A stretch of DNA of 64,000 nt from Candidatus Uhrbacteria bacterium (GCA_016209325.1 JACQWJ010000034.1:220-64219); one strand, 5' to 3'. Positions 13,823 to 62,910 are shown, numbered from the stretch's first letter. Notes: a model not told the origin generated them from the letters alone. Numbers and translations are program-made.

Positions 13823-14179
13823 GTGACGCACCTCATCTACCGCTACGAGCCGAGGGATGGGACGGACGCGCGTCTGTGGGAAGGCTTGATGGAGGCCACC
13901 CACGAGATCGCGCTCGAGTGCCAGCGCCTCGAGCAGGCGCTCCCAAGCCCACTCACGCCCTACAGCTGGCTCCTCATATGGGCCATGGCCGCATTCGCCG
14001 CCGCGCTCCTCCTCCTGAATCGCGACCAGCCTTCCCTGTCCGCGTTCGGCGCCGCGCTGTCGCTCGGCTCCCTGTGCCTCGGCATGGACCTCCTCGTCCA
14101 GACCAGCCGGCTTTCCAAGCGCGAGGTCGCGGAGTTCCAAAACCGTTACCTGGCGAACATCGAAAAGAGCAGGGATTAA
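13823..14179 (+). CDS. hypothetical membrane protein (open frame extends upstream to ~13640, start codon unclear)
   Basis: Two TM helices (LTPYSWLLIWAMAAFAAALLLL, LSLGSLCLGMDLLV); same frame stays open upstream without ATG. Confidence 0.35.
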   Translation: MTHLIYRYEPRDGTDARLWEGLMEATHEIALECQRLEQALPSPLTPYSWLLIWAMAAFAAALLLLNRDQPSLSAFGAALSLGSLCLGMDLLVQTSRLSKREVAEFQNRYLANIEKSRD

Positions 14180-14221
14180 GACGCGCAGCATCCTCACATT
14201 TCACATGAAACCAAAAACTTT

Positions 14222-14929
14222 GTGACCGTAGCAGATGAAGCAATCACATTCGCCAAACAACATAAGGTTGAGATTTCCCGTCGATTAACCGACCCTGCCC
14301 GGTATCCTCCAAGCGCATATCCCGTTACCGTTTTCATGGCTGGTTCACCTGGTGCAGGCAAGACGGAATATTCAAAAAACCTGCTTGCGGAACTTGCCAA
14401 ACATCCTCAGCACCATCCCGTTCGCATTGATAGCGACGAACTCCGCTCCGAGATTCCTTCTTACACCGGAAATAATTCCGCAGAAATGCAGGGAGCTGTC
14501 TCGATCCTGCTTCGAGAACTGTACGAGCGGACGTTGAAAAACAACCAAACAGTTATCGTCGATGGAACATTCTCAAACTACGAGAAAGCAAAAGAGAATG
14601 TAACCCGTTCGCTTCATCGTGAACGAGAGGTATTCATTTTCTACCTGTATCAACGTCCCGAGATTGCCTGGCAATTTACCCTCGCGAGGGAAAAAGTTGA
14701 GGGTCGCCATATTCCAAAAGATGTTTTCATCCATCAATTCATTCAGGCAAAAGAAACCGTGAACCAGATTCGGAAAGATTTTCAGGAACACGTAAACATA
14801 TTCTTGGTAAAGAAAGACTTTCAAACAAATCAAGTCGCATCCGTGAACCGCATGCGTCCAGAAGATCCGGGATTGGACGCCTATCTACAAGAGACGTATA
14901 CTAAGGAGCAGCTACTAGCACTCCTATGA
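14222..14929 (+). CDS. zeta-toxin family P-loop kinase (AAA-like)
   Basis: Walker A FMAGSPGAGKTEYS, Walker B-like VIVDGTF; ~235 aa matches zeta-toxin/UDP-GlcNAc kinase fold family; AT-rich islet. Confidence 0.65.
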   Translation: MTVADEAITFAKQHKVEISRRLTDPARYPPSAYPVTVFMAGSPGAGKTEYSKNLLAELAKHPQHHPVRIDSDELRSEIPSYTGNNSAEMQGAVSILLRELYERTLKNNQTVIVDGTFSNYEKAKENVTRSLHREREVFIFYLYQRPEIAWQFTLAREKVEGRHIPKDVFIHQFIQAKETVNQIRKDFQEHVNIFLVKKDFQTNQVASVNRMRPEDPGLDAYLQETYTKEQLLALL

Positions 14930-15112
14930 TATTCTCATTTTTTTCAAAAAAAAGATGCAATGAACAGAAAAAGACTGATAACGTATCAGATTTTTTATTG
15001 CACGCTTCGGAAAAAGAAAAAATCCAACTTTTCACAAAAGTGGCACACCAAACAAATAGGGATCAGCAGGATCTCGTAGAACGCAGTAAAAACCTCCAAA
15101 CGATATAAACAA

Positions 15113-15137
15113 GACCCGCTTCATGCGGGTTTTGTTT
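15113..15137. terminator. bidirectional rho-independent terminator between convergent zeta-like gene and RT gene
   Basis: ACCCGC-TTCAT-GCGGGT hairpin followed by TTTTGTTT (plus strand); U-rich on the other strand too. Confidence 0.45.
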
Positions 15138-15181
15138 CATGGGAATGCAACAAAGCTGCAGGGAATTGATCCGGACGGAGA

Positions 15182-16180
15182 TTAAAGTGCACGATCACCT
15201 TCCAAAATTTGTTGGCTGAGTTCGTACGTATCGCCGTGACGCAGAAGACCGAGGTAAGAAGCGAGCGTTTCCGGCTTGGCGGATCCCTTCAGATTTTTTA
15301 ACATCTTTCGTTTAGTCGAGGTGCGAAGAACACGATAATGGGGAAAGTGGACCCACCCCAAAAAATCGATTCCAGAGGCAATAGAACGAAGCTCAATCTT
15401 TCGAGGATGAAGTGATAAACGCAGTCGTTGAAACAGAAACGCGTCTATTTCCTCAAGGATATTTTCGAGATATTCCCGATGCTCTGAAAACAAAACGAAA
15501 TCATCGGCATAGCGGATGTAAAGCTTCACCCGTAAGCGATGTTTTACAAACTGATCGAACGCATTCAGGTAGACATTGGCCAACATCTGCGAAGTCAGGT
15601 TCCCAAGCGGAAGCCCGATACCCTCGATCCCCGAAGAGAAACTTTGGAGAATCGTTTCGAGGAGACGGACGATCCGTTTGTCCGCGATGTATCCATCAAG
15701 CATGGTCAGCAAAACGCGCTGGTCAATGGAAGCGAAGAACTTCCGAATATCGCATGTGAGGACCCAGACGGTCTTGCGATGATTTTGCGAAACCTTGCGC
15801 GCAAAGACGTTAAACCGATCAAGCGCCTTGTGCGTTCCCTTCCCCATCCGACAGGAAAACGAATCGGCGATAAACGTCCGATCAAAAAACGGATATAATC
15901 TGCGGTACAAGGCGCGATGAAGGACCCGGTCTGCCACGGAGGCTTTGTGGATGTGCCTCGTCTTCGGATCGGAGATGATGAATGCTTGATACGGAGCGTG
16001 ACGATACGTCATGTCCGTAAGGCGCGTATGGAGAGAAAACAAATTTTCCATGAGCGACCGTTCAAACGCTTGCACGTCATCCCGTGACCGTTTTCCCTTT
16101 ACAAACTCCTGCCAAGCCTCAAGCAGATTCTCCATAGAAATAACATCCTCGTACGTATGCTGGAAGAGACTCCGGGACAT
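15182..16180 (-). CDS. reverse transcriptase of a diversity-generating retroelement (DGR)
   Basis: RT motifs incl. YADDFVLF (motif 5) and DGR-specific GLPLGNLTSQMLANVYLNAFD (motif 4 with SQ); ~330 aa with no maturase/endonuclease domain; adjacent TR/VR pair. Confidence 0.8.
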   Translation of the reverse strand: MSRSLFQHTYEDVISMENLLEAWQEFVKGKRSRDDVQAFERSLMENLFSLHTRLTDMTYRHAPYQAFIISDPKTRHIHKASVADRVLHRALYRRLYPFFDRTFIADSFSCRMGKGTHKALDRFNVFARKVSQNHRKTVWVLTCDIRKFFASIDQRVLLTMLDGYIADKRIVRLLETILQSFSSGIEGIGLPLGNLTSQMLANVYLNAFDQFVKHRLRVKLYIRYADDFVLFSEHREYLENILEEIDAFLFQRLRLSLHPRKIELRSIASGIDFLGWVHFPHYRVLRTSTKRKMLKNLKGSAKPETLASYLGLLRHGDTYELSQQILEGDRAL

Positions 16181-16215
16181 AACGCCCCTAAGGTTACCCC
16201 CCCCCCCGAACGCTT

Positions 16216-16584
16216 TTGCCAGTCTTGCAAAAGTTGAAAACCGCCTACCTCCTCTGGTTTGGGTATTGCGCCACCATCCCTAAAACGCATCGGTACACGC
16301 TCGGAAACCGCATTGACCAGTTGTTCATCGAAACCATCGAAGCCGTCAGCACGGCCGGCTTTTTGAGCCGTCAAGACAAACTCCCGTACGTACGGCTCGG
16401 CATACGAAAATTGGATACGGCGAAAATTCTCCTCCTTGTGCTGTGGGAATCAAAATCTCTGGACAACAAAAAATACATCGCCCTTTCCCGGGATGTCGAT
16501 GAAGTCGGAAGGATGCTCGGAGGATGGCATGGACAACTCACAAAACAAAACCCCGCCTCTTCCAAAGAAGGGGCGGGGAAATGA
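16216..16584 (+). CDS. avd: Avd-like accessory variability determinant (four-helix-bundle / 23S rRNA IVS family)
   Basis: 122 aa; C-terminal ILLLVLWESKSLDNKKYIALSRDVDEVGRMLGGW matches Avd/IVS family pattern (...IGKMLGGW); lies between RT and TR. Confidence 0.55.
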   Translation: MPVLQKLKTAYLLWFGYCATIPKTHRYTLGNRIDQLFIETIEAVSTAGFLSRQDKLPYVRLGIRKLDTAKILLLVLWESKSLDNKKYIALSRDVDEVGRMLGGWHGQLTKQNPASSKEGAGK

Positions 16585-16592
16585 AGAGACTG

Positions 16593-16710
16593 GCGAGGAT
16601 CGCGGACGGGTTGTTGGAGTTCCACCTGTTGTCGAGATAGTTGTAGTTCACGTACCACCGACCGTCGTTCCAGTACAGGTAGCGGACGTACAGGTTCCCG
16701 TTGGAGTCGC
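16593..16710 (-). repeat. DGR template repeat (TR)
   Basis: 118-bp block matching VR 17083-17200 at all but 15 positions; every mismatch is a T on the plus strand, i.e. an A in the minus-strand TR. Translated TR is rich in AAY (Asn/Tyr) codons. Confidence 0.8.
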
Positions 16711-17075
16711 GATCACACGTGAGACGTCTCCCATAACACTGCTTCTTGAATACTCTCAAAGCTGTATTTTATGCGCGATCTATAATCGCCTAACGTCTCA
16801 CGCCGAGTATCTTCATGAAAAGATTTTTACGTGCCACGCTATCTCAAACCGTAGCATGAAATATTCTGGGCCCAGAAAAATCGAGCTTGGCAGCAAAAAG
16901 CCATAGCCTCTCGCATATTCGCCTTGCCTAACCGCCATGATACAAAAAAACGTTCAAAACGAAAACAGGACCTCGCACACGAAGAAATCGTGGAAAGTCC
17001 TGCAAGAACGGAAAGAAAAAGGGCAAAGGGCCAAGGTCCAAAGGACAGAAGGTCCAATGTTCCAAGGCCCAAAAA

Positions 17076-17333
17076 CTAACTCGCGAGGATCGCGGACGGG
17101 ACGCTGGAGCTCCACCTGCTGACGAGATAGTAGCAGTCCACGCACCACCGACCGTCGCTCCAGTACAGGCAGCGGACGTACAGGTTCCCGCTGGAGCCGC
17201 TGAAGCCAACGGCCCAGAAAAAGATGTAGCGGGTGTTGCCCGCGGCATCCTTCTTCCAGACATCCGGGATGAGATGGACATTCTCCATCAAGGCATCCAG
17301 AATGTTGGGATGGAGGGCATCCAGTCCCTCCAT
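17076..17333 (-). CDS. DGR target (variable) protein, C-terminal portion carrying VR; frame stays open upstream to 17474 at the IS junction, so gene is likely 5'-truncated by the IS
   Basis: C-terminus ...GNLYVRCLYWSDGRWCVDCYYLVSRWSSSVPSAILAS encoded by VR; the in-frame upstream stop at 17475-17477 lies 3 nt from the putative IS end (~17481). Confidence 0.6.
   Translation of the reverse strand: MEGLDALHPNILDALMENVHLIPDVWKKDAAGNTRYIFFWAVGFSGSSGNLYVRCLYWSDGRWCVDCYYLVSRWSSSVPSAILAS
17083..17200 (-). repeat. DGR variable repeat (VR) at 3' end of target gene, with GC-rich IMH-like 3' segment
   Basis: Paired with TR, differing only at TR-adenine positions. Shared 3' segment CCCGTCCGCGATCCTCGC (minus sense), then divergence (IMH versus IMH*-like). 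Confidence 0.8.
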
Positions 17334-17522
17334 CCGACCACGGAGGTCATGGCCGAGGATGGAACCGGTCCCCTTCTGGGCCTCGTCGAGGTGCAGGAGA
17401 ACTTCCCGCCCGTTGACGAAGAGCTTGTCGCCCCGCCGTTGAACCCGGACCCAGCCCTTCTTGACGGGCGAGGTCTATAATGGACCCCAAAATTTAGACA
17501 CGCATTTCCCCTCGCATCCCCT

Positions 17523-17819
17523 ATGAGCGAAACCGTCCCCAAGGGACATCCACCCGTCCTCAAAGCGAAGATCGTCCTTGATGCTCTCCGAGAACAAAAG
17601 ACGATGGCTGAGCTCTCAAGCCTCTACGGCGTGCACACGCTGAAGATCAAAAACTGGAAGAGACAAGCCCTGCTTGCCATCCAGGACGGCTTTACGGAGA
17701 AGACCAAGCAAACCAAAAAAGAACAGGAGGAACTCACGTCCTCCCTCTACCAGGAGATCGGCCGACTCAAAATCGAGATCGACTGGCTTAAAAAAAAGAT
17801 GGGACTCCTTGAGTCGTGA
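17523..17819 (+). CDS. IS3-family transposase OrfA (HTH DNA-binding)
   Basis: 98 aa, KAKIVLDALREQKTMAELSSLYGVH HTH, leucine-zipper-like tail; ends at slippery A7G. Confidence 0.8.
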   Translation: MSETVPKGHPPVLKAKIVLDALREQKTMAELSSLYGVHTLKIKNWKRQALLAIQDGFTEKTKQTKKEQEELTSSLYQEIGRLKIEIDWLKKKMGLLES

Positions 17820-18669
17820 GCAGGGCCTCACCGTCCGGGATCGGGTGGCACTCCTTGAGCGAGACCATCCGGATCTGCCCCTCTCTCGCCAAACCGAGCT
17901 TCTCGGCGTCTCTCGCGCCTCCGCCTACTACCGTCCGGCGGGACCCTCGAAGTGCGATCTCGCCCTCATGGAGGAGATCGACCAACTGTACACTGAGCGC
18001 CCATACTACGGCTCCCGACGTCTGGCTCGAGAGATTTCCAAACGTCGGAAGGAGAACGTGAATCGCAAGTGTATTCAGCGCCTCATGGGTCAGATGGGAC
18101 TCGAAGCCATCTATCCCAAGCCGAACTTAAGCCGAAATACGGCCAAACATCCGATTTACCCCTATCTCCTGCGAGGCGTGAAGATCGAACGACCCAATCA
18201 GGTCTGGAGCACAGACATCACCTACATCCGCCTCTCCCATGGCTTCGTCTACCTCGTGGCCGTGATCGACTGGTACTCCCGCCTGGTTCTCGCCTGGCGG
18301 GTCTCAACCACGATGGAAGCCGGCTTCTGTATCGAGGCAGCAGAGGAAGCAATTGCGATGTACGGCGTACCGGAGATCTTCAACAGCGACCAGGGCGTTC
18401 AGTTCACAAGCGCCGACTACATTGCCATCTGGGAGACGCGCGGTGTCCGCCTCAGTATGGATGGGCGCGGTCGGGCCCTCGACAACATCTTCGTCGAGCG
18501 ACTGTGGCGAACCGTCAAATACGAGGAGGTCTACCTGAAGCACTACGAGACCGTGGAGGAAGCGAGGACGGGCCTCTCCGCCTACTTCCGCTTCTACAAC
18601 CACGAACGCCTCCACCAGAGTCTCCACTACCTCACACCTCACGAGGTCCACTTCCCAAGAGAAGGTTAA
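17816..18669 (+). CDS. IS3-family transposase OrfB (DDE integrase core), expressed via -1 frameshift from OrfA
   Basis: VWSTDITYIRL...VIDWYSRLVLAWRV...FNSDQGVQFTS...ERLWRTVKYEEVY, typical rve DDE motifs; ORF-track 17674-18669 includes the -1-frame overlap with orfA. Confidence 0.8.
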
Positions 18670-18749
18670 ACCAAAAAAAATCGGGCCTACCCGCCTGTCC
18701 TGGAACTTGCCACCAAGAACGGACTGGTACGCCTGATTTCCCCAACCAC

Positions 18750-19031
18750 TTATCCACTGACTGTCTTGACGATGGGGTCCACCTTAGTCGGCCAAGCCAC
18801 CTCAGCTCCCTCGAAGGGCAGTTTCACCTGCGCGTCGAGGTTGACCTCGATGGTGTTGTTGTCGATCAAGTGCCAACGGACTTCCGTTGACCAGGGGTTT
18901 TCTCTGCGGAGAAACTTCTTGAACGCCACGAACCACTCCAGTCCGTTGGCGCCAGCAAGCTTCTCGTAGAAATCCTTCATCGGTCCAGCCAGGGCGGCCA
19001 GACCATCAGCGCCGAGCACGTCTTTCGACAT
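18750..19031 (-). CDS. hypothetical protein; possibly the N-terminal fragment of the IS-split DGR target gene
   Basis: 93-aa ORF ending right at the putative right IS end, same strand as target gene; no motif recognised. Confidence 0.35.
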   Translation of the reverse strand: MSKDVLGADGLAALAGPMKDFYEKLAGANGLEWFVAFKKFLRRENPWSTEVRWHLIDNNTIEVNLDAQVKLPFEGAEVAWPTKVDPIVKTVSG

Positions 19032-19346
19032 GGTCAGTCTCCTTCTCTATTTGGTTTCATTCTTGTCCACGAATCTGCGGACGAAAACTACTCCCCGTGT
19101 TGAAAACCGCATCCTGGCTTACTTTAGCCAAAAAATAAGCAAGACGCGATTTTCAACTAGCTCAAGAGAACTGTTAAATTGTACCACATTTTGTCATAAA
19201 TGTCAAACATAATATATTGTTAGTCCCCAAATCGACTGGAAGTCAACGGAATCATGGCATGACTGAAGTCCGCATGAAGACATAAAAACGAAACATTGAC
19301 GGACAAGTAAGGATACGGTCATAATAGTTAATAACATTTCATATCT

Positions 19347-19580
19347 ATGCCTCCCGCATCTACCATCATGTCCGTATCACTACCCAGGATGCTCACGAAG
19401 GCGATCGACGCCCTCGCGACAAGCACCCAGCAGAACAGAAGCGAACTCGTACGATCTGCCCTGCGTGAATATATCGCGGATGCGGGGGAAGAACGGGAAC
19501 GGTTCATCCGGGCGTACAAGGCGACGCGGAAAGAGGCAACCGTAAGCCTCGCTCGACTCAAGAAGAAATACGCGCTCTAG
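19347..19580 (+). CDS. ribbon-helix-helix (CopG/ParD-like) antitoxin
   Basis: 77 aa; ...SELVRSALREYIAD... RHH pattern; 3 nt upstream of relE/parE-like ORF. Confidence 0.6.
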   Translation: MPPASTIMSVSLPRMLTKAIDALATSTQQNRSELVRSALREYIADAGEERERFIRAYKATRKEATVSLARLKKKYAL

Positions 19581-19583
19581 CGT

Positions 19584-19868
19584 ATGTATCGGATCGTCTT
19601 TCGAAAATGATTTGAGCGGACGTTTACGGATATCGACCAGGAAACCCAAAGAACCGTCATCGAAGCGTTGGAACGGCTGGCAGCGGATCCATTCGCCTCG
19701 CCGCATGTAAGAAAGATCGCCGGCGTAACGTACCCCGCCTACCGGCTCAGGGTCGGAAGGTGGCACGTCCTGTACCTCCTCATCACCGAAGACAAGACCA
19801 TCGAAGCCATCGAGCTCTTTCTCAAGACTTCTCAGAAGGAATACAGGAAGTTCGTTTCGGGAAGATAG
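19584..19868 (+). pseudogene. RelE/ParE-family toxin gene interrupted by in-frame TGA at 19608-19610
   Basis: MYRIVFRK-TGA-FERTFTDIDQETQRTVIEALERLAADPF...YRLRVGRWHVLYLLITEDKTIEAIEL, full RelE/ParE fold signature across the TGA; same frame on both sides. Confidence 0.55.
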
Positions 19869-19882
19869 GTAAAATCCCAATT

Positions 19883-20731
19883 TTATAACGCATCCTTCAG
19901 ACGTTTTTTCTTCTGCGGCTTTGTCAAAAAATTTTTCTTGGTGACAACCGGCCGGCCCAGACGTGCTTCGAGATTCTTCCTGGCCCCTCCGGCGATGTCG
20001 CCTCCCGCCTTGGCGTCCGCTTTCAATTTCGGAATGCCTTTTGAATCTTCCGTCCGATGGATCTCGGTCGTTGCGCGTTCGCCAAGCATGTTGAAAATCA
20101 GCTCGAAATCGTCCATGTGATCGCGTAAATTTTCGCGCCTCAATCCCTTCAATGTTTTATATTCGCTGGGCGTCACGCCAAACGTCGCCTTGGAAATCTC
20201 GGCAGTCAATATCTCGTAGTCTTGCCGGTCCTTTGCCCCGCGATTTTTCCATTCGTCGGTAAGTTCTTCGCGAATAGCCATTCCACGCATGCGCTTTTCA
20301 ATCCAATCTTCACTATAGCCTTTGAGTTTGTAAAGCATCCGTGTCCGCTTTGTCGCCAATTCAGGATTCTCGATTTCTCGCATACGTTCGTAACCCACCT
20401 TCGCCAGCCATCGCTTGAACGGTTCGGCCTTAGGGGAAGGAATGGATTGGATAATGCGAAAAATTCCTTCAGTATCCGCACAATTGATCCGCTGGATTCC
20501 GCCTTGCGTCTGAATCAAAAGGGGGGTGGAAATTTGCCCCCATCCTTTAGCAAGATCCGGATCGCGACGACGCATATCCTTTAAATACCCATCTGGTTGA
20601 GACGAATCCGTCAGAACTCCTATCACGTCCACAATCACAAACCACCATTCGCCACGGTGGAATTTCTTGCGAATCTGTTTGCCCTTGAACAAGGCGATCT
20701 GCGTATGTTCGATATTCTCAGCATCAGACAT
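19883..20731 (-). CDS. Bro-N domain protein (DinD / phage antirepressor-like)
   Basis: IALFKGKQIRKKFHRGEWWFVIVDVIGVLTDS matches BRO-N domain; likely start MSDAENIEH; AT-rich islet. Confidence 0.6.
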   Translation of the reverse strand: MSDAENIEHTQIALFKGKQIRKKFHRGEWWFVIVDVIGVLTDSSQPDGYLKDMRRRDPDLAKGWGQISTPLLIQTQGGIQRINCADTEGIFRIIQSIPSPKAEPFKRWLAKVGYERMREIENPELATKRTRMLYKLKGYSEDWIEKRMRGMAIREELTDEWKNRGAKDRQDYEILTAEISKATFGVTPSEYKTLKGLRRENLRDHMDDFELIFNMLGERATTEIHRTEDSKGIPKLKADAKAGGDIAGGARKNLEARLGRPVVTKKNFLTKPQKKKRLKDAL

Positions 20732-20806
20732 ATCGTATTCACGATAAGGCACATTGCGTTCGAAAAAGAACAAACTATTTGAGCGCCTGACCAAGCGTCC
20801 ACTGGG

Positions 20807-21889
20807 CTACGTGGAAGAAGACTCCTGAGGAGGCGGGGGCACGGAACCCCCGCGCAACATGCCCGCCTTGTAGAGCTCAATCACGACGAGGAACGCCGCG
20901 AGGATGACGGGACCGACGATGATGCCGATCGAGCCGAAGACCTCGAGGCCGCCGAAGATGAAGATGAGGACCAGAAAGGCGTGCATGTGGGTCGCGCCCT
21001 TGATGAGGTAGGGGGCGAGCACGTTGTCGGACAGGCCGACGAAAACGGCCGCCCAGATGAGAAGCCCAATGGCGGCGCCGGTGCTGCCGGTGAAAAAGAG
21101 GTAGAGAACCGCAGGGATCATGACGAGGCCAACGCCGAACAAGGGAACTTGGGCCGCGACCACCGTGATCGCTCCCCAGATGAGAGCGCCGGGGACCCCG
21201 AAGATGGACATACCGATCGCGGCCAAGACACCCTGGACGAAGGCCAGGATGACCGCGCCGAACACCACCGAGCGCACGGTCAGGACGATGCGGTGGATGA
21301 TGTCGCGGTCCATGGCGTCCCCGAACGGACTGAGGGCGAGAATCTCGTCGTACATCTTCTGGCGGTCCACCAGGATGTAGTAGAGGGCGATGAAGAAGAT
21401 GAACGTGTTCAGGACCAGACGGGTAGTGCTCGAGAAGAGATCCCCAACATTGCTGAACATCCACTGGGCCAGGTTGCGGGCCAGGGCGTGGAGGTCCCAG
21501 GCGCGGACCTGTTCCTGGACGAACGCAGGCAGGCTTTGGAACAGGGGATGAGAGCGGGGATCGAACGTGGCCAGCCAGCCCGCCTCGCCAAGCGAGCTTT
21601 GGAGGATCTCGGAGGCCTGCTTCACCATAAGGAGCAGGATGAAGAAGACGGGCAGGGCGACGAGCAGGAAGACCCCGCACACGAGCAGGAACGCCGCGAG
21701 CTTCCGATGTCTGATCAAGCGCTCCATGCGGACGTGGAGCGGAGTCAGCATGATGGCCGCGATACCGGCCGCCAGGAGGACCAGGACAAACGGCTGGACT
21801 GTCTGCCAGGCGAGAAACAGGACCGCCGCGGCCAGCGCGAGAAAGAACCATTTTTCCAATCCCATCGTGGCGGAAAGGGGTTGCGACAT
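20807..21889 (-). CDS. AI-2E family transporter (PerM/YdiK-like, UPF0118)
   Basis: 8-TM protein with FIFFIALYYILVDRQKM and C-terminal GGLEVFGSIGIIVGPVILA, typical AI-2E family; start Met uncertain (ORF-track start at 22018 upstream). Confidence 0.7.
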   Translation of the reverse strand: MSQPLSATMGLEKWFFLALAAAVLFLAWQTVQPFVLVLLAAGIAAIMLTPLHVRMERLIRHRKLAAFLLVCGVFLLVALPVFFILLLMVKQASEILQSSLGEAGWLATFDPRSHPLFQSLPAFVQEQVRAWDLHALARNLAQWMFSNVGDLFSSTTRLVLNTFIFFIALYYILVDRQKMYDEILALSPFGDAMDRDIIHRIVLTVRSVVFGAVILAFVQGVLAAIGMSIFGVPGALIWGAITVVAAQVPLFGVGLVMIPAVLYLFFTGSTGAAIGLLIWAAVFVGLSDNVLAPYLIKGATHMHAFLVLIFIFGGLEVFGSIGIIVGPVILAAFLVVIELYKAGMLRGGSVPPPPQESSST

Positions 21890-43700: not shown

Positions 43701-43777
43701 GGGCCCATGGGAGTAATTGGCAACTCCATTCGCTTTGACAACGGAAGTTGCGGGTTCAAGTCCCGCTGGGTCCACCA
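43701..43777 (+). tRNA. tRNA (77 nt, CCA encoded), anticodon uncertain; G3:U70 and A73
   Basis: Acceptor GGGCCCA/TGGGTCC, D-arm GGAG-TAATTGGCAA-CTCC, T-arm GCGGG-TTCAAGT-CCCGC, ACCA; anticodon arm TTCGC-TTTGACA-ACGGA with 31:39 C-A mismatch, loop UUGACA as in tRNA at 6774-6849. Confidence 0.65.
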
Positions 43778-59028: not shown

Positions 59029-62000
59029 TTATTGCGGAAGCGTCATGACCTGGCCGGAGCCGGACCAACTGATCCCCACCTCATATTCGTAGTCGTCCAC
59101 CTCCACACAGAGCGGATCGCCGCTCTCCTCGCACCACTGGTTGTAGTACGAGTACCTCCAGTCGTTGGAGGAGGTCATGTTGACCGCCTTCGTGGAGCTC
59201 GTTGTGGACAGGGTAGAGACGAGGGTGAAGACCGAAGCCGTCACCTTCGCCTTACCCGCGAAGTCGACGGCCAGAAGCCCGCCCGAATACAGGATGAGGT
59301 TGTCGCTCTGGAGCTGCGTAGACGGCCCGAAAGGGCTGTCGCCGGTGGCGTAGGCGTTGGCGGTCGTGTAGGCCGTGGCCGCCGGGTCGCATTTCCAGTT
59401 TCCGGAGATATAGCCCGAGGTCTCGTACTTGCAGGCGAAGACCCCCTGACTCCCGCTCCGGAACACGACTTTGCTCCCCTCGAAGTAGACATACGGGCAG
59501 GAAACGGTCTCCTGCGCGTCCATGGCGCCGTCGCAGTCGGTGTCGGCCTGATCACCGCACCGTTCGATGGCGTTCGGGTAGACGGTGTTGTTGGCGTCGT
59601 TGCAGTCGCCGGTCGCCGTCGCGTAGCCCGAGGGCTTGTTGCAGGCGGCCGTGGTCGTGGAGGTACCGTAGCCGTCAACGTCGGCATCGAGATAGAAGGT
59701 CTTCTTCACCCCCTCGTCGACCGAGCCGTCGCAGTCGTTGTCCAGCCCGTCGCAGCTTTCGGCTGCATTGGGATTGACGGACGACCGCGTGTCGTCGCAG
59801 TCGGTGTTGTTGGTGACCTTGCCGCTCGGCTGGGCGCAGGCCGAGACGGGGGTTGAGCCCGCCATGCCATAGCCGTCGCCGTCCGCGTCGGGGTAGTAGT
59901 TTTTGAACGTGAGCCCCTCATCGGAGCTCCCGTCGCAGTCGTCGTCTATCCCGTTGCAGGCCTCGGCGGCACCCGGGTAGACCGCGGCGTCGGCGTCGTC
60001 GCAGTCTCTGTCGTTGGTGACCTGGGCTCCAGACGGAGCACAGGCGTAGGTCGGGCTGCTCCCCATCTGGCCGTAACCGTCGCCGTCTGAATCCGTGTAG
60101 TAGGCGGTCTTGACGCCGTCGTCGGCCTGACCGTCGCAGTCGTCGTCGAGCCCGTTGCACGTTTCCGTAGCACCGGGGTAGACACTCGAGCGCGTGTCGT
60201 CGCAGTCGGTGTTGTTGTTGGTGTAACCAGACGGTGGACTACATGCGTAAGCAGGGCTGCTCCCCGCCTTACCGTAGCGGTCACCGTCGTCATCTGGGTA
60301 GTAGGCGATCTGGACGCCGTCGTCCGCCACGCCGTCGCAATCGTCGTCGAGGCTGTTGCACTGCTCGAGAGCGCCGGGGTAGATGGCCCCGTTGCCGTCG
60401 TCGCAGTCGCCGGAAACAGTGACGTAGCCGAATGGCTGGACGCAGTCGGCCTTGGTGACCGCACCGTTGCCGTAGCCGTCGCCGTCGATGTCCTCGTACC
60501 AGGTCTGGTAGAGGACACTTTCATCGATGTCTCCGTCGCAGTCGTCGTCGGCCCCGTTGCACTGCTCGGGGGCGTTCGGGTGAACTGCCGCGTCGGTGTC
60601 GTCGCAGTCGTCGTCGGCGGAGACATATCCGGAGGGCTGAGCGCAGGCCTCGGTGGCCTCACCAGAATCCCCGTATCCATCACTGTCGCTGTCGAGGTAC
60701 CAGACCGAACGGGCAAGCCCGTCGTCGATCTGGGTGTTGCAGTCGTTGTCGATATTGTCGCAGACCTCCGTTGCCCCCGGATGGGTCTGGTCGTCGCTGT
60801 CGTCGCAGTCAGAGTTGTCGAGGACGTACCCAGAGGGCTGAGCGCACGCCTGGGTCGAGACAGCCGCGTTGCCAAAGCCGTCGCCATCCAGGTCCTCGTG
60901 ATAGATGACCTTCAGGCCGTCGTCGGCCACCCCGTCGCAGTCGTCGTCAATCCCGTTGCAGACTTCCACCGCTCCAGGATGAACGGTCGACCGAGTGTCG
61001 TCGCAGTCGAGGCTGTTGGCGACGTATCCGTCGGGCTGGGTGCAGGCTTGAATGCCTTTTCCCGCGTCCCCGTATCCATCTCCGTCGACGTCCTCGAAGT
61101 AGTTGGTTTTGACGCCCTCGTCAAACTGGGTGTCGCAGTCGTTGTCCAATCCATCGCATTCCTCCGGTGCTCCCGGATGGACATTCGACCTGGAGTCATC
61201 GCAGTCGGCGTTGTGGCCGACGTAGCCATCGGGCTGGGAACAGGCCTGGATCGACCCGTCCGCCGCTCCGTACCCGTCGACATCGGCGTCGCGGTAGTAC
61301 TGGGTCTTCTGGATGCCGTCATCCGCCGCACCGTCGCAGTCGTCGTCCGCCTCGTTGCAGACCTCAGTGACGCCGGGATTCACCGCCGGATTGCCGTCGT
61401 TGCAGTCGCCGGAACGGAGAACGGTGCCAGCCGGCTGGAGGCAGTCCTCCACGCCCTCGCCGGTTCCGTACCCGTCGCCGTCGGCGTCCATGTACCACCT
61501 CGAGGTCGTGACGTCGTTGTCAACCACCTCGTCGCAGTCGTTGTCGATGCCGTCGCACTGCTCCGGCGCGCCGGGATAGGTCGCGGCGTCGGCGTCTTCA
61601 CAGTCGCCGGCGTTGTCGACATACCCTTCCGGTGCACGACAGGCCTCGGTGGTTTCCGCGTCTGGATCGCCGAAGCCGTCTTCGTCCGCGTCGACGTAGA
61701 AGGTCGTCGTTTCGAGATCTTGGTCGACCTCGCTGTCGCAGTCATCGTCGATCCCATTGCAGGCTTCCGCCGCTTCGGGGTTGACCGACGCCTGGGTGTC
61801 GTCGCAGTCGAGGGCGTTGTCGACGTATCCATCAACCTGCTCACACCCCTGGGTCGGGATGGTCGGGTCGCCGTAGCCGTCGTTGTCGCCGTCGAAGTAG
61901 TAGGCGTTGTTCACACCCTCATCCGCCTCGCCGTCACAGTCGTCGTCCTGGTTGTTACAGGTCTCCGTCGCTCCGGGATGGACATCCTGGTCGGTATCGG

Positions 62001-62910
62001 CACAGTCACCGCCTTCCGACACGTAGAGGTCGGTCGGAGGCTTGCAGGCGATGGCGGGTTTGGCGGAATTGCCGTACCCGTCGCCGTCGTTGTCCGGGTA
62101 GAAGGTGCTAAGGACACCTTCGTCCACCGCCCCGTCGCAGTCGTTGTCCGCTTCGTCGCAGATCTCGTCGGCATCGGGGTTGATCGAAGCGTCGCTGTCA
62201 TCGCAGTCGTCGGCGTTGTCGACGTAGTCGTCCGGAGCAGCGCACGTTCCCGCCGGCTTGGCGGGATCGCCGAAGCCGTCGCTGTCGAGGTCCTGGTAGA
62301 AGGGCTCGTAGCTGCCCTCGTCGACCTCCCCGTCGCAGTCGTCGTCCTGCCCGTTGCAGACCTCGTCGGCTTCGGGATTGACCGACGCCAGCGTGTCGTC
62401 ACAATCTTCGGAGTTGTCGACGTAACCGTCTGCGCTGTCACAGACGAACTGTTCGTCCTCAGCGTCGCCGAAGCCGTCTTCGTCCTTATCTGCGTAAACC
62501 GCCCAACGATCGCTGAGTTCGACGTCATCGTCGATCTCGCCGTCGCAGTCGTTGTCAACGCCGTCACAGTCGTCGTAGGCGCTCGGATGAACCGCATCGT
62601 CCGCGTCATCGCAGTCGCCTTCCGTGACCGTGTAGCCGTCGTCGTCATCATCCTGCTTTGGATCCGGCGTGGACGTGGTGACCGGAGGCGAAGTGCCATC
62701 CGGCGGCGTCGTCTCTTCCGGGGAGGGCTCCATGGTCGGAGTGACCGACGGTGCCGTATCGGGAGGTATGGAAGCCTCCGGACACTCATCGTTCGGGTAG
62801 TCGGAGGGGTAACTCCCCCCTGAGCAAGGCAACTCCACGGGAAAGCATCCCGCCACCAGGAAGAACAGCCCCGTGATAGGACCATTCACCAACTTCCATC
62901 TTTTTTTCAT
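59029..62910 (-). CDS. giant secreted/surface protein with ~19 tandem Cys-rich MopE-like putative metal-binding repeats
   Basis: Signal/lipoprotein-like N-terminus; Thr/Pro-rich linker; repeat unit [DG]xCDDxDxxxxPGAxExC(N/D)GxD(D/N)DCDGxxDEG about every 60 aa; distinct ~200-aa C-terminal domain. Confidence 0.7.
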   Translation of the reverse strand: MKKRWKLVNGPITGLFFLVAGCFPVELPCSGGSYPSDYPNDECPEASIPPDTAPSVTPTMEPSPEETTPPDGTSPPVTTSTPDPKQDDDDDGYTVTEGDCDDADDAVHPSAYDDCDGVDNDCDGEIDDDVELSDRWAVYADKDEDGFGDAEDEQFVCDSADGYVDNSEDCDDTLASVNPEADEVCNGQDDDCDGEVDEGSYEPFYQDLDSDGFGDPAKPAGTCAAPDDYVDNADDCDDSDASINPDADEICDEADNDCDGAVDEGVLSTFYPDNDGDGYGNSAKPAIACKPPTDLYVSEGGDCADTDQDVHPGATETCNNQDDDCDGEADEGVNNAYYFDGDNDGYGDPTIPTQGCEQVDGYVDNALDCDDTQASVNPEAAEACNGIDDDCDSEVDQDLETTTFYVDADEDGFGDPDAETTEACRAPEGYVDNAGDCEDADAATYPGAPEQCDGIDNDCDEVVDNDVTTSRWYMDADGDGYGTGEGVEDCLQPAGTVLRSGDCNDGNPAVNPGVTEVCNEADDDCDGAADDGIQKTQYYRDADVDGYGAADGSIQACSQPDGYVGHNADCDDSRSNVHPGAPEECDGLDNDCDTQFDEGVKTNYFEDVDGDGYGDAGKGIQACTQPDGYVANSLDCDDTRSTVHPGAVEVCNGIDDDCDGVADDGLKVIYHEDLDGDGFGNAAVSTQACAQPSGYVLDNSDCDDSDDQTHPGATEVCDNIDNDCNTQIDDGLARSVWYLDSDSDGYGDSGEATEACAQPSGYVSADDDCDDTDAAVHPNAPEQCNGADDDCDGDIDESVLYQTWYEDIDGDGYGNGAVTKADCVQPFGYVTVSGDCDDGNGAIYPGALEQCNSLDDDCDGVADDGVQIAYYPDDDGDRYGKAGSSPAYACSPPSGYTNNNTDCDDTRSSVYPGATETCNGLDDDCDGQADDGVKTAYYTDSDGDGYGQMGSSPTYACAPSGAQVTNDRDCDDADAAVYPGAAEACNGIDDDCDGSSDEGLTFKNYYPDADGDGYGMAGSTPVSACAQPSGKVTNNTDCDDTRSSVNPNAAESCDGLDNDCDGSVDEGVKKTFYLDADVDGYGTSTTTAACNKPSGYATATGDCNDANNTVYPNAIERCGDQADTDCDGAMDAQETVSCPYVYFEGSKVVFRSGSQGVFACKYETSGYISGNWKCDPAATAYTTANAYATGDSPFGPSTQLQSDNLILYSGGLLAVDFAGKAKVTASVFTLVSTLSTTSSTKAVNMTSSNDWRYSYYNQWCEESGDPLCVEVDDYEYEVGISWSGSGQVMTLPQ

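Follow-up and report, generated by a model that had tools for sequence, protein, structure and literature searches.

The diversity-generating retroelement (DGR) of Bordetella phage BPP-1 (mtd-avd-TR-brt) combines an SQ-motif reverse transcriptase (RT) and the Avd protein with an AAC-rich template repeat (TR), from which adenine mutagenesis is directed to a variable repeat (VR). The VR has a GC-rich end at the initiation of mutagenic homing (IMH) site and a hairpin after it, a stem-loop lies just after the TR, and the structured RNA that the element requires (Sp, Rfam RT-10) is found on the downstream side of the TR. In the Candidate Phyla Radiation (CPR, or Patescibacteria), architecture B3, TR-(avd)-RT with an inverted avd, makes up 90% of DGRs (Wu et al. 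2018, PMC5758913), and the CPR-restricted DGR clade 2 has targets without recognizable domains (Roux et al. 2021, PMC8144416). Here we describe a locus in a 64-kb stretch of DNA from Candidatus Uhrbacteria bacterium (GCA_016209325.1, JACQWJ010000034.1:220-64219), which as a whole is called the window below. We are highly confident that the region is a chromosomal DGR of a CPR/Patescibacteria lineage whose target gene has been split by an insertion sequence (IS) of the IS3 family. Every BPP-1 feature listed above up to the stem-loop has a likeness here, with a GC-rich end that is IMH-like. In contrast to BPP-1, avd is encoded in the opposite direction in the gap between TR and RT, the large conserved RNA structure is upstream of the TR with antisense avd downstream, the element is cellular rather than phage-borne, and the target fold is at best weakly lectin-like.

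The two repeats carry the evidence for mutagenic homing. The TR (16593-16710, minus strand, 118 nt) and the VR (17083-17200, minus strand, at the 3' end of the target open reading frame, ORF) align without gaps over 118 bp at the positions proposed in an earlier, sequence-only reading of this DNA, and an independent repeat search recovered the same pair (122 nt, 88%). That reading counted 15 differences between the repeats, and our recount gives 14. Each of the 14 is at a plus-strand T, that is, at a TR adenine on the minus (sense) strand, so that the confinement of mismatches to TR adenines was borne out without a single exception. The altered positions are 14 of the 29 TR adenines (11 A>G and 3 A>T) and 0 of the 89 other TR bases; the probability that 14 random differences would all fall on the 29 adenines is about 1.5e-10 (hypergeometric). 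The VR corresponds to the final 39 codons of the target ORF, which the IS interrupts. In this frame 11 TR adenines are at codon position 1, 18 at position 2 and 0 at position 3, and the TR contains nine AAC codons, its translation having been given correctly before. The 14 VR substitutions change 13 codons and all are non-synonymous. Since the differences are adenine-specific and all non-synonymous, they indicate past mutagenesis of the VR by the DGR.

The shared GC-rich 3' segment followed by divergence, also noted previously, was confirmed as an 18-nt block (CCCGTCCGCGATCCTCGC) that is identical at the 3' ends of TR and VR, forms the final 18 nt of the VR and is IMH-like; it is followed by GAG versus CAG, with divergence beyond. 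A scan of both strands of the window with adenines masked found no further VR. A conserved A after the TR was considered as a mark of the priming site and rejected, because this A belongs to the avd stop codon read in antisense.

The RT gene (15182-16180, minus strand) is apparently intact and encodes a 332-aa protein that matches Pfam RVT_1 (E 4.5e-23). Its translation holds GLPLGNLTSQ...YLN, with the DGR-type SQ motif LGNLTSQ, and the YxDD box as YADD, as had been read from the sequence. The best PDB sequence match was 8ub7_A, a 328-aa 'Reverse transcriptase' (140 bits, E 9e-40), which we infer to be Bordetella phage bRT from its length and the cryo-EM preprint series. Other solved RTs scored lower, with 78 bits for the group II GsI-IIC RT and about 63 bits for retron-type RTs. 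By these sequence scores (140 versus 78 bits) the RT is nearer to DGR RTs than to the retron or group II types; a placement with the latter two is what the sequence-only reading had named as able to overturn its call. The RT also gave single full-length tblastn matches, at 49-69% identity, to the RTs of CPR loci. No DGR-RT model was among the NCBIfam families listed for it.

The Avd-like ORF of 122 aa that had been proposed does exist (16216-16584, plus strand, opposite to TR, RT and target). It matched NCBIfam DivGenRetAVD (E 2.2e-15, 56.8 bits, curated cut-off 80) and Pfam bAvd (E 1.2e-9, 39 bits, cut-off 40), and its homologues in related loci matched Pfam bAvd in 22 of 22 cases. Exact-sequence look-ups found none of the RT, Avd, a zeta toxin and a 60-aa ORF of the window on record.

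The locus was first read as a complete DGR, with its right boundary at 17477. This claim did not stand, as the boundary is the edge of the IS and the target ORF is truncated there. The C-terminal target fragment (17076-17475, minus strand, 132 codons plus stop) carries the VR and is open to the IS edge. Its 17 first-pass homologues are 181-229 aa in length, most of them 189-229 aa, cover the fragment at 39-66% identity and extend about 80 residues further N-terminally. Beyond the IS, an ORF at 18750-19031 (minus strand) starts with MSKDVLG..., and the homologues start with MSKxxLG.... The N-terminal target fragment within it (18787-19031, minus strand, with 81 codons at 19031-18790; MSKDVLG...AEVAWPT) aligns with the N-termini of homologues P0001-P0005. 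A promoter-like site, TTGACA-17-TACAAT with a TG, precedes the target gene at 19178-19206 (minus strand) and is putative, with 11 of 12 matches in a consensus scan.

The IS between the two fragments is 1,311 bp long (17476-18786, plus strand). Like IS3-family elements in general, it has an OrfA with a helix-turn-helix (HTH) domain (17523-17819), an OrfB with a DDE (rve) domain extending to 18669, a slippery A8G run (17790-17798), imperfect terminal inverted repeats with the common core TGGACCCCA, and a 3-bp target duplication, GTC, at 17473-17475 and 18787-18789. Its proteins matched NCBIfam transpos_IS3 (278 bits, cut-off 160) and Pfam rve, HTH_21 and HTH_Tnp_1. Excision of 17476-18786 together with one GTC yields an in-frame protein of 213 aa (...AEVAWPTSPVKKGWVRVQ...) that aligns with the family from end to end; the empty site expected without the IS reads ...TGGCCGACCTCGCCC.... 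Alternative IS ends, TGGACCCC...GGGGTCCA, were rejected, since they leave no target duplication and a frameshift, whereas ends 5 nt further outward give the GTC duplication and restore the frame.

The exact OrfA sequence was found on three contigs independently assembled from three sequencing runs. The contigs match the window at 100% identity across 16743-20088, 17050-19123 and 16588-18183, with both junctions covered. Because they span both junctions, the IS is probably present as a single copy in the genomes from which they come, and a search of the window found no second copy. The IS3 transposition into target codon 82 is real and has split the only target gene. With the IS in codon 82, the gene can no longer yield the full-length variable protein. 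Neither target fragment has further lesions, indicating that the insertion is recent.

Other explanations of the locus were weighed against this evidence. One is that the DGR is complete and functional, its target being the short ORF of 85-132 aa that ends at about 17477. The VR-bearing frame is indeed open from 17474 to its stop at 17076, and its first in-frame ATG, at 17333, would give an 85-aa product carrying the VR. However, the homologues are longer in 17 of 17 cases and the missing part is found beyond the IS, where it rejoins in frame. Moreover, no start codon lies between 17474 and 17333, and by the structure model the 85-aa piece from the ATG at 17333 would miss about half of the C-terminal domain, which makes a short target very improbable. 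Repeats and IS are often misassembled in metagenomes, and the IS-target junctions might for that reason be artefacts of a chimeric contig or a misplaced mobile element. With three independent contigs 100% identical across the junctions, a clean GTC duplication and exact restoration of the frame, we regard an assembly artefact as slightly less credible still. The least probable account, to which we give almost no weight, is that the repeats arose by ordinary duplication or gene conversion and that the RT is of the retron or group II intron type. The best NCBIfam match of the RT is a group II intron RT/maturase model, which would suit this account, yet its 143.6 bits are far under the cut-off of 300. 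The mismatch bias, the SQ motif and the adjacent Avd all argue against it, as does the concentration of the mismatches of related loci on TR adenines (411 of 427).

Several observations count against our reading of the locus as a CPR DGR with an IS3-split target. The VR is the same in the window and the three independent contigs and gives no direct sign of current activity. The Avd scores are just under both curated cut-offs, and searches of the PDB with the single Avd sequence and with a 22-member profile found no match. The IS ends implied by the duplication are TA...TA, in contrast to the TG...CA usual for the IS3 family, which lies 5 nt inside. As for the first point, an intact related locus has a VR that is likewise invariant across six samples, and invariance is therefore not evidence of inactivity. 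The same point bears on whether the element is a decaying relic, inactive since the loss of its target and with parts that have not yet degraded. The disrupted target, a VR that is invariant in four independent sequences, and the position of the cassette in a low-G+C island with toxin-antitoxin and Bro-N genes, and so in accessory DNA, all speak for a relic. Against this, neither the RT nor the avd ORF is shortened and catalytic motifs are kept, the structured leader described below scores as in relatives (123.5 bits), and the target fragments lack further lesions, so that the insertion would be recent. In the Bordetella phage DGR, homing depends on the 3' end of the VR and the hairpin downstream of it and does not require an intact ORF, and mutagenesis of the pseudogene could therefore continue. 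We consider a relic a genuine possibility, although a somewhat doubtful one.

Comparison with related loci places the element firmly within a conserved layout. An avd placed between TR and RT but read in the other direction had been called uncommon but tolerated. This arrangement is found in 29 of 29 target-selected relatives with RT and avd beside the target and in 23 of 24 loci of an independent set selected by RT similarity, and it is the layout of the published architecture B3. Since the relatives and architecture B3 share the inverted avd, the remark is wrong for this lineage. Furthermore, 28 of 29 target-selected loci have a TR/VR pair of 120-130 bp in the equivalent position. With the CPR DGRs of architecture B3 and clade 2 the locus shares gene order and orientation, a chromosomal setting in a CPR genome, and a small target without a recognizable domain that carries a C-terminal VR. 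It differs from them in the IS-interrupted target and in the base composition of host and cassette, a host of about 60% G+C with the cassette in an island of 48-52%. Overall, the DGR call was correct, and the element appears to match the CPR-restricted clade 2. It is an ordinary member of the CPR DGRs, and the interesting leads are the leader RNA and the promoter repeat that occur across the lineage.

The target belongs to a family of at least 308 members, 0 of which have a Pfam domain. The target itself matched no family in Pfam or NCBIfam, and its profile gave nothing meaningful against the PDB. A confident structure model (pLDDT 90.5) has a pair of helices at the N-terminus, a beta unit, and at the C-terminus an alpha/beta domain ending in VR strands, and a Foldseek search with this model found no significant match in PDB or BFVD. 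A divergent lectin-like fold is plausible on the basis of the model. In species-representative genomes the family occurs at 235 places. Most of the 80 listed loci among these are metagenome-assembled genomes (MAGs) labelled CPR/Patescibacteria, and several of the 80 are labelled Gammaproteobacteria or Bdellovibrionales, which we take to be mislabelled MAGs.

The first of the two leads is a structured RNA leader of about 215 nt directly upstream of the TR. The leader and TR would belong to one RNA unit starting at a promoter-like TG-TATCAT (16944->16937, minus strand), a putative promoter that aligns with TGnTAnAAT. In relatives, TGnTAnAAT is directly 3' of the target terminator hairpin, and the window has a weak terminator-like site before TG-TATCAT. 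RNAalifold predicted stem A (16923->16889) and stem B (16876->16828) within 16828-16923 (minus strand), with 30 pairs, 23 of them compensatory, followed by a domain of three helices, P1-P2-P3 (16803->16717, minus strand), that ends 6 nt before the TR and has 24 pairs, 21 of them compensatory. The covarying structure thus comprises 54 pairs in total.

A covariance model of the P1-P3 domain (R1) scored the window at 123.5 bits, inside the range of relatives. It gave one match per locus on the target/RT strand in 45 of 81 sources. It also matched 19 of 33 metagenome loci selected by RT; one of these matches is weak and on the opposite strand (locus L130), and the others are on the RT strand, some 540-700 nt ahead of the RT. 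In 17 sequences that were not used for training, 96.2% of cells were paired, compared with 80% for shuffles and 29-53% for slid controls, and 19 of 24 pairs were compensatory; this alignment was fitted to the model, which favours the structure.

For the leader, neither the window nor 12 related loci gave an Rfam match at gathering score. Below that threshold, the P1-P3 domain scored 22.6 bits against Rfam RT-16 (RF03019; gathering score 50), and the 5' hairpin of Rfam RT-7 (RF03028) scored 25.9 bits against window positions 16870->16816 (gathering score 116.8). RT-16 and RT-7 are orphan RT motifs in the vicinity of RT genes that may belong to DGRs (Weinberg et al. 2017, PMC5737381). RT-16 has the closing helix, the junction CAUAAAAUACAGC and the inner helix of P1-P3 in common with the leader, and the 5' hairpin of RT-7 matches stem B. 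They differ from the leader in P2 and in 139 RT-7 model positions that are absent here, besides the sub-threshold scores.

In two related loci of 10-12 kb, L054 (6657-6905) and L017 (6765-7040), the leader and TR are present with adenine mismatches to the neighbouring VR in 12 of 12 and 14 of 15 cases, respectively, and no avd or RT was found in either locus. The TR RNA unit is therefore separable from its RT. In another related CPR locus (L049, 2474-2601) a LOOT RNA (RF03000, 77.8 bits) is located about 3.4 kb upstream of the DGR target.

At its other end the TR is followed after 14 nt by a stem-loop (16578->16551, minus strand) and the run UUUUGUUUU (16550->16542), antisense to the last avd codons. 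The stem-loop has 6 consensus pairs, 5 of them compensatory and 0 broken in 27 sequences. Avd-binding stem-loops just downstream of the TR have been predicted in 207 of 278 DGRs (Handa et al.), and by analogy the stem-loop here fits such an element. To judge from its U run, it may act as the terminator of the RNA as well. In addition, a putative long-range pairing across the TR would join AAAUGAAGA, 5' of P1, to UCUUCAUUU, 3' of the TR. Duplexes between these segments had a mean energy of -6.66 kcal/mol within the same locus and -5.74 kcal/mol between loci (permutation p 0.0016). The pairing may, rather weakly, be an analogue of the 'cPRT Stop duplex' (Handa et al.).

The VR is followed by a hairpin of another type, so that the two repeats differ in this respect. 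Just past the target stop codon lies a segmented hairpin (17070->17028, minus strand; RNAfold -23.7 kcal/mol, z -4.4) in which symmetric UU/UU internal loops separate helices of 2-5 bp, so that CCTTGG recurs with a period of 8 nt. Across 75 target-family loci, folded one by one with RNAfold and compared with dinucleotide shuffles, the median z of this region was -2.3 and 56% were below -2, whether or not an RT was adjacent. The motif CTTnG occurs after the VR 3.3-3.9 times per 90 nt versus a background of 0.53. RNAalifold predicted no structure for the aligned post-VR region, because the loop lengths misalign. In the Bordetella phage DGR a hairpin/cruciform inverted repeat lies downstream of the IMH (PMC5758913), and by analogy the segmented hairpin is likely its counterpart.

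The second lead is a simple-sequence repeat in the 35-bp divergent intergenic region between avd and RT. In the window it is a G11 tract (16207->16197, minus strand; C11 on the plus strand), and no other G/C homopolymer in the 64 kb reaches a length of 8. Directly 3' of it and 10 nt before the RT ATG is a -10-like hexamer, TAACCT (16191-16196, minus strand), part of a putative promoter. Among 29 relatives, 13 have a hexamer of the form TAnnnT immediately next to the tract. Of 30 loci selected by target, 29 have a repeat at the equivalent place, as have 19 of 24 selected by RT (48 of 54), with a background of 31 such repeats in 317 kb. The repeats are either poly-G of 6-12, always with G on the RT strand, or (GT)8, (CT)10, (AG)13 or (CT)6. 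As dinucleotide repeats replace poly-G in relatives, it is probably repetitiveness rather than sequence that is conserved.

Tract length varies between otherwise identical copies, a polymorphism known from relatives rather than from the window locus. In one related locus (L085-L090, near position 4423) six samples are identical over 2.6 kb except for G9 versus G10, and in another (L091-L093, about 1,432 nt past the target start) three runs are identical over 2.5 kb except for G8 versus G9; such single-base differences could be homopolymer miscalls. A third related locus has G11 in both copies. Two assemblies with the same RT and avd coordinates (L127 and L128), taken as one locus and compared within the shown flank, have G10 versus the interrupted GGGGTGGGGG about 40 nt upstream of the RT start at 2501. 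The P0103 locus has no repeat and no variation, and the P0028 locus has no adjacent RT. As a side observation, the same RT is called in public annotations as 381 aa (L085, L087) or 336 aa (L086, L088, L089), and avd is called or missed, with a one-base change in G-tract length. These tract-dependent gene calls are an annotation artefact and could mislead surveys.

In phase-variable promoters such as those of meningococcal porA (poly-G) and Bordetella fim (poly-C), a homopolymer lies between the -35 and -10 elements. The avd-RT repeat resembles them in having a G/C homopolymer just upstream of a -10-like hexamer and, in relatives, a length polymorphism as the sole difference. It differs in that the controlled gene would be a targeted-mutagenesis RT rather than a surface antigen. 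By this analogy the repeat may be a phase-variable RT promoter. A literature search linking DGRs to homopolymeric tracts or to insertion sequences found nothing relevant, and no description of the leader RNA or the poly-G repeat was found in two papers on CPR DGRs (PMC5758913, PMC8144416).

From these observations we built a model of how the element would work. On the minus strand, the order is the target with its VR, the segmented hairpin, a proposed RNA unit of about 390 nt, the opposite-strand avd, the poly-G repeat and the RT. The RNA unit would have its own promoter-like site, the structured leader, the TR and the stem-loop with its U run, and target, leader-TR RNA, avd and RT would form four transcription units. 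An RT-Avd complex is proposed to bind the leader-TR RNA and to copy the TR into cDNA with random misincorporation opposite adenines. The cDNA would then replace the VR, guided by the common GC-rich 3' end and the post-VR hairpin, and would recode up to 20 adenine-containing codons within the last 39 codons of the 213-aa protein. The IS3 element entered codon 82 of the target later, with RT, avd, TR and all cis elements staying intact.

To this we add the tentative proposal, held with less than even confidence, that the lineage has two undescribed layers of control, a promoter switch for the RT based on a hypermutable repeat and an upstream leader RNA needed by RT-Avd. In the first layer, slipped-strand changes in the length of the spacer in the RT promoter, and perhaps the avd promoter, would tune RT expression and switch it on and off stochastically, creating a contingency locus over a targeted mutator. 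In the second, the RNA structure for priming, processivity and stopping of RT-Avd would reside mainly in the leader, whose 12-bp P1 abuts the TR 5' end. This arrangement would be a permuted form of the Bordetella phage DGR RNA, where the equivalents (Sp) are downstream. The window holds both features intact, the G11 tract and the leader.

The surroundings of the DGR bear on the host and on the origin of the cassette. The best named matches of the PilB encoded in the window are to Candidatus Uhrbacteria/Patescibacteria (54-60% identity), and on this sequence evidence the host would be a member of the Patescibacteria close to Uhrbacteria. A chromosomal setting is indicated by genes for type IV pili, SecD and NDH-2 further along the window. 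The cassette has a G+C content of 48-52% (a stretch of about 14-21 kb), in a genome of about 60%, which is unusually high for such a host. The low-G+C island (14001-21000) holds, besides the DGR, genes for the zeta toxin (14222-14929), an RHH protein (19347-19580), a small ORF (19668-19868) and a Bro-N protein (19883-20794), contents that suggest horizontally acquired accessory DNA.

Elsewhere in the window, ARAGORN predicted two tRNA-Ser(UGA) genes, at 6774-6849 (minus strand) and 43701-43777 (plus strand). Of these, only the second reaches the Rfam gathering score, and the first could be a decayed copy or a scar left by integration. An ORF of 1,293 aa (59029-62910, minus strand) with 12-13 tandem repeats of about 200 nt, 60-75% identical between copies, is probably a repetitive surface protein. 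A SecD/SecF-type protein (3336-5549, minus strand) has a peptidyl-prolyl isomerase (PPIase, rotamase) domain in the same ORF, an unusual fusion.

Together, the results indicate that CPR DGR cassettes can lose their sole target to a transposon with the machinery intact, and the split target offers a natural case for asking if retrohoming continues into a pseudogene. To our knowledge, the regulation of DGR activity has largely not been described. Furthermore, cDNA priming in non-phage DGRs has been inferred by prediction only (Handa et al.). A conserved, length-polymorphic repeat and a covarying leader fused to the TR would provide two testable hypotheses for the most DGR-rich branch of the bacteria, and comparison with the leader suggests a function for the orphan Rfam 'RT' motifs.

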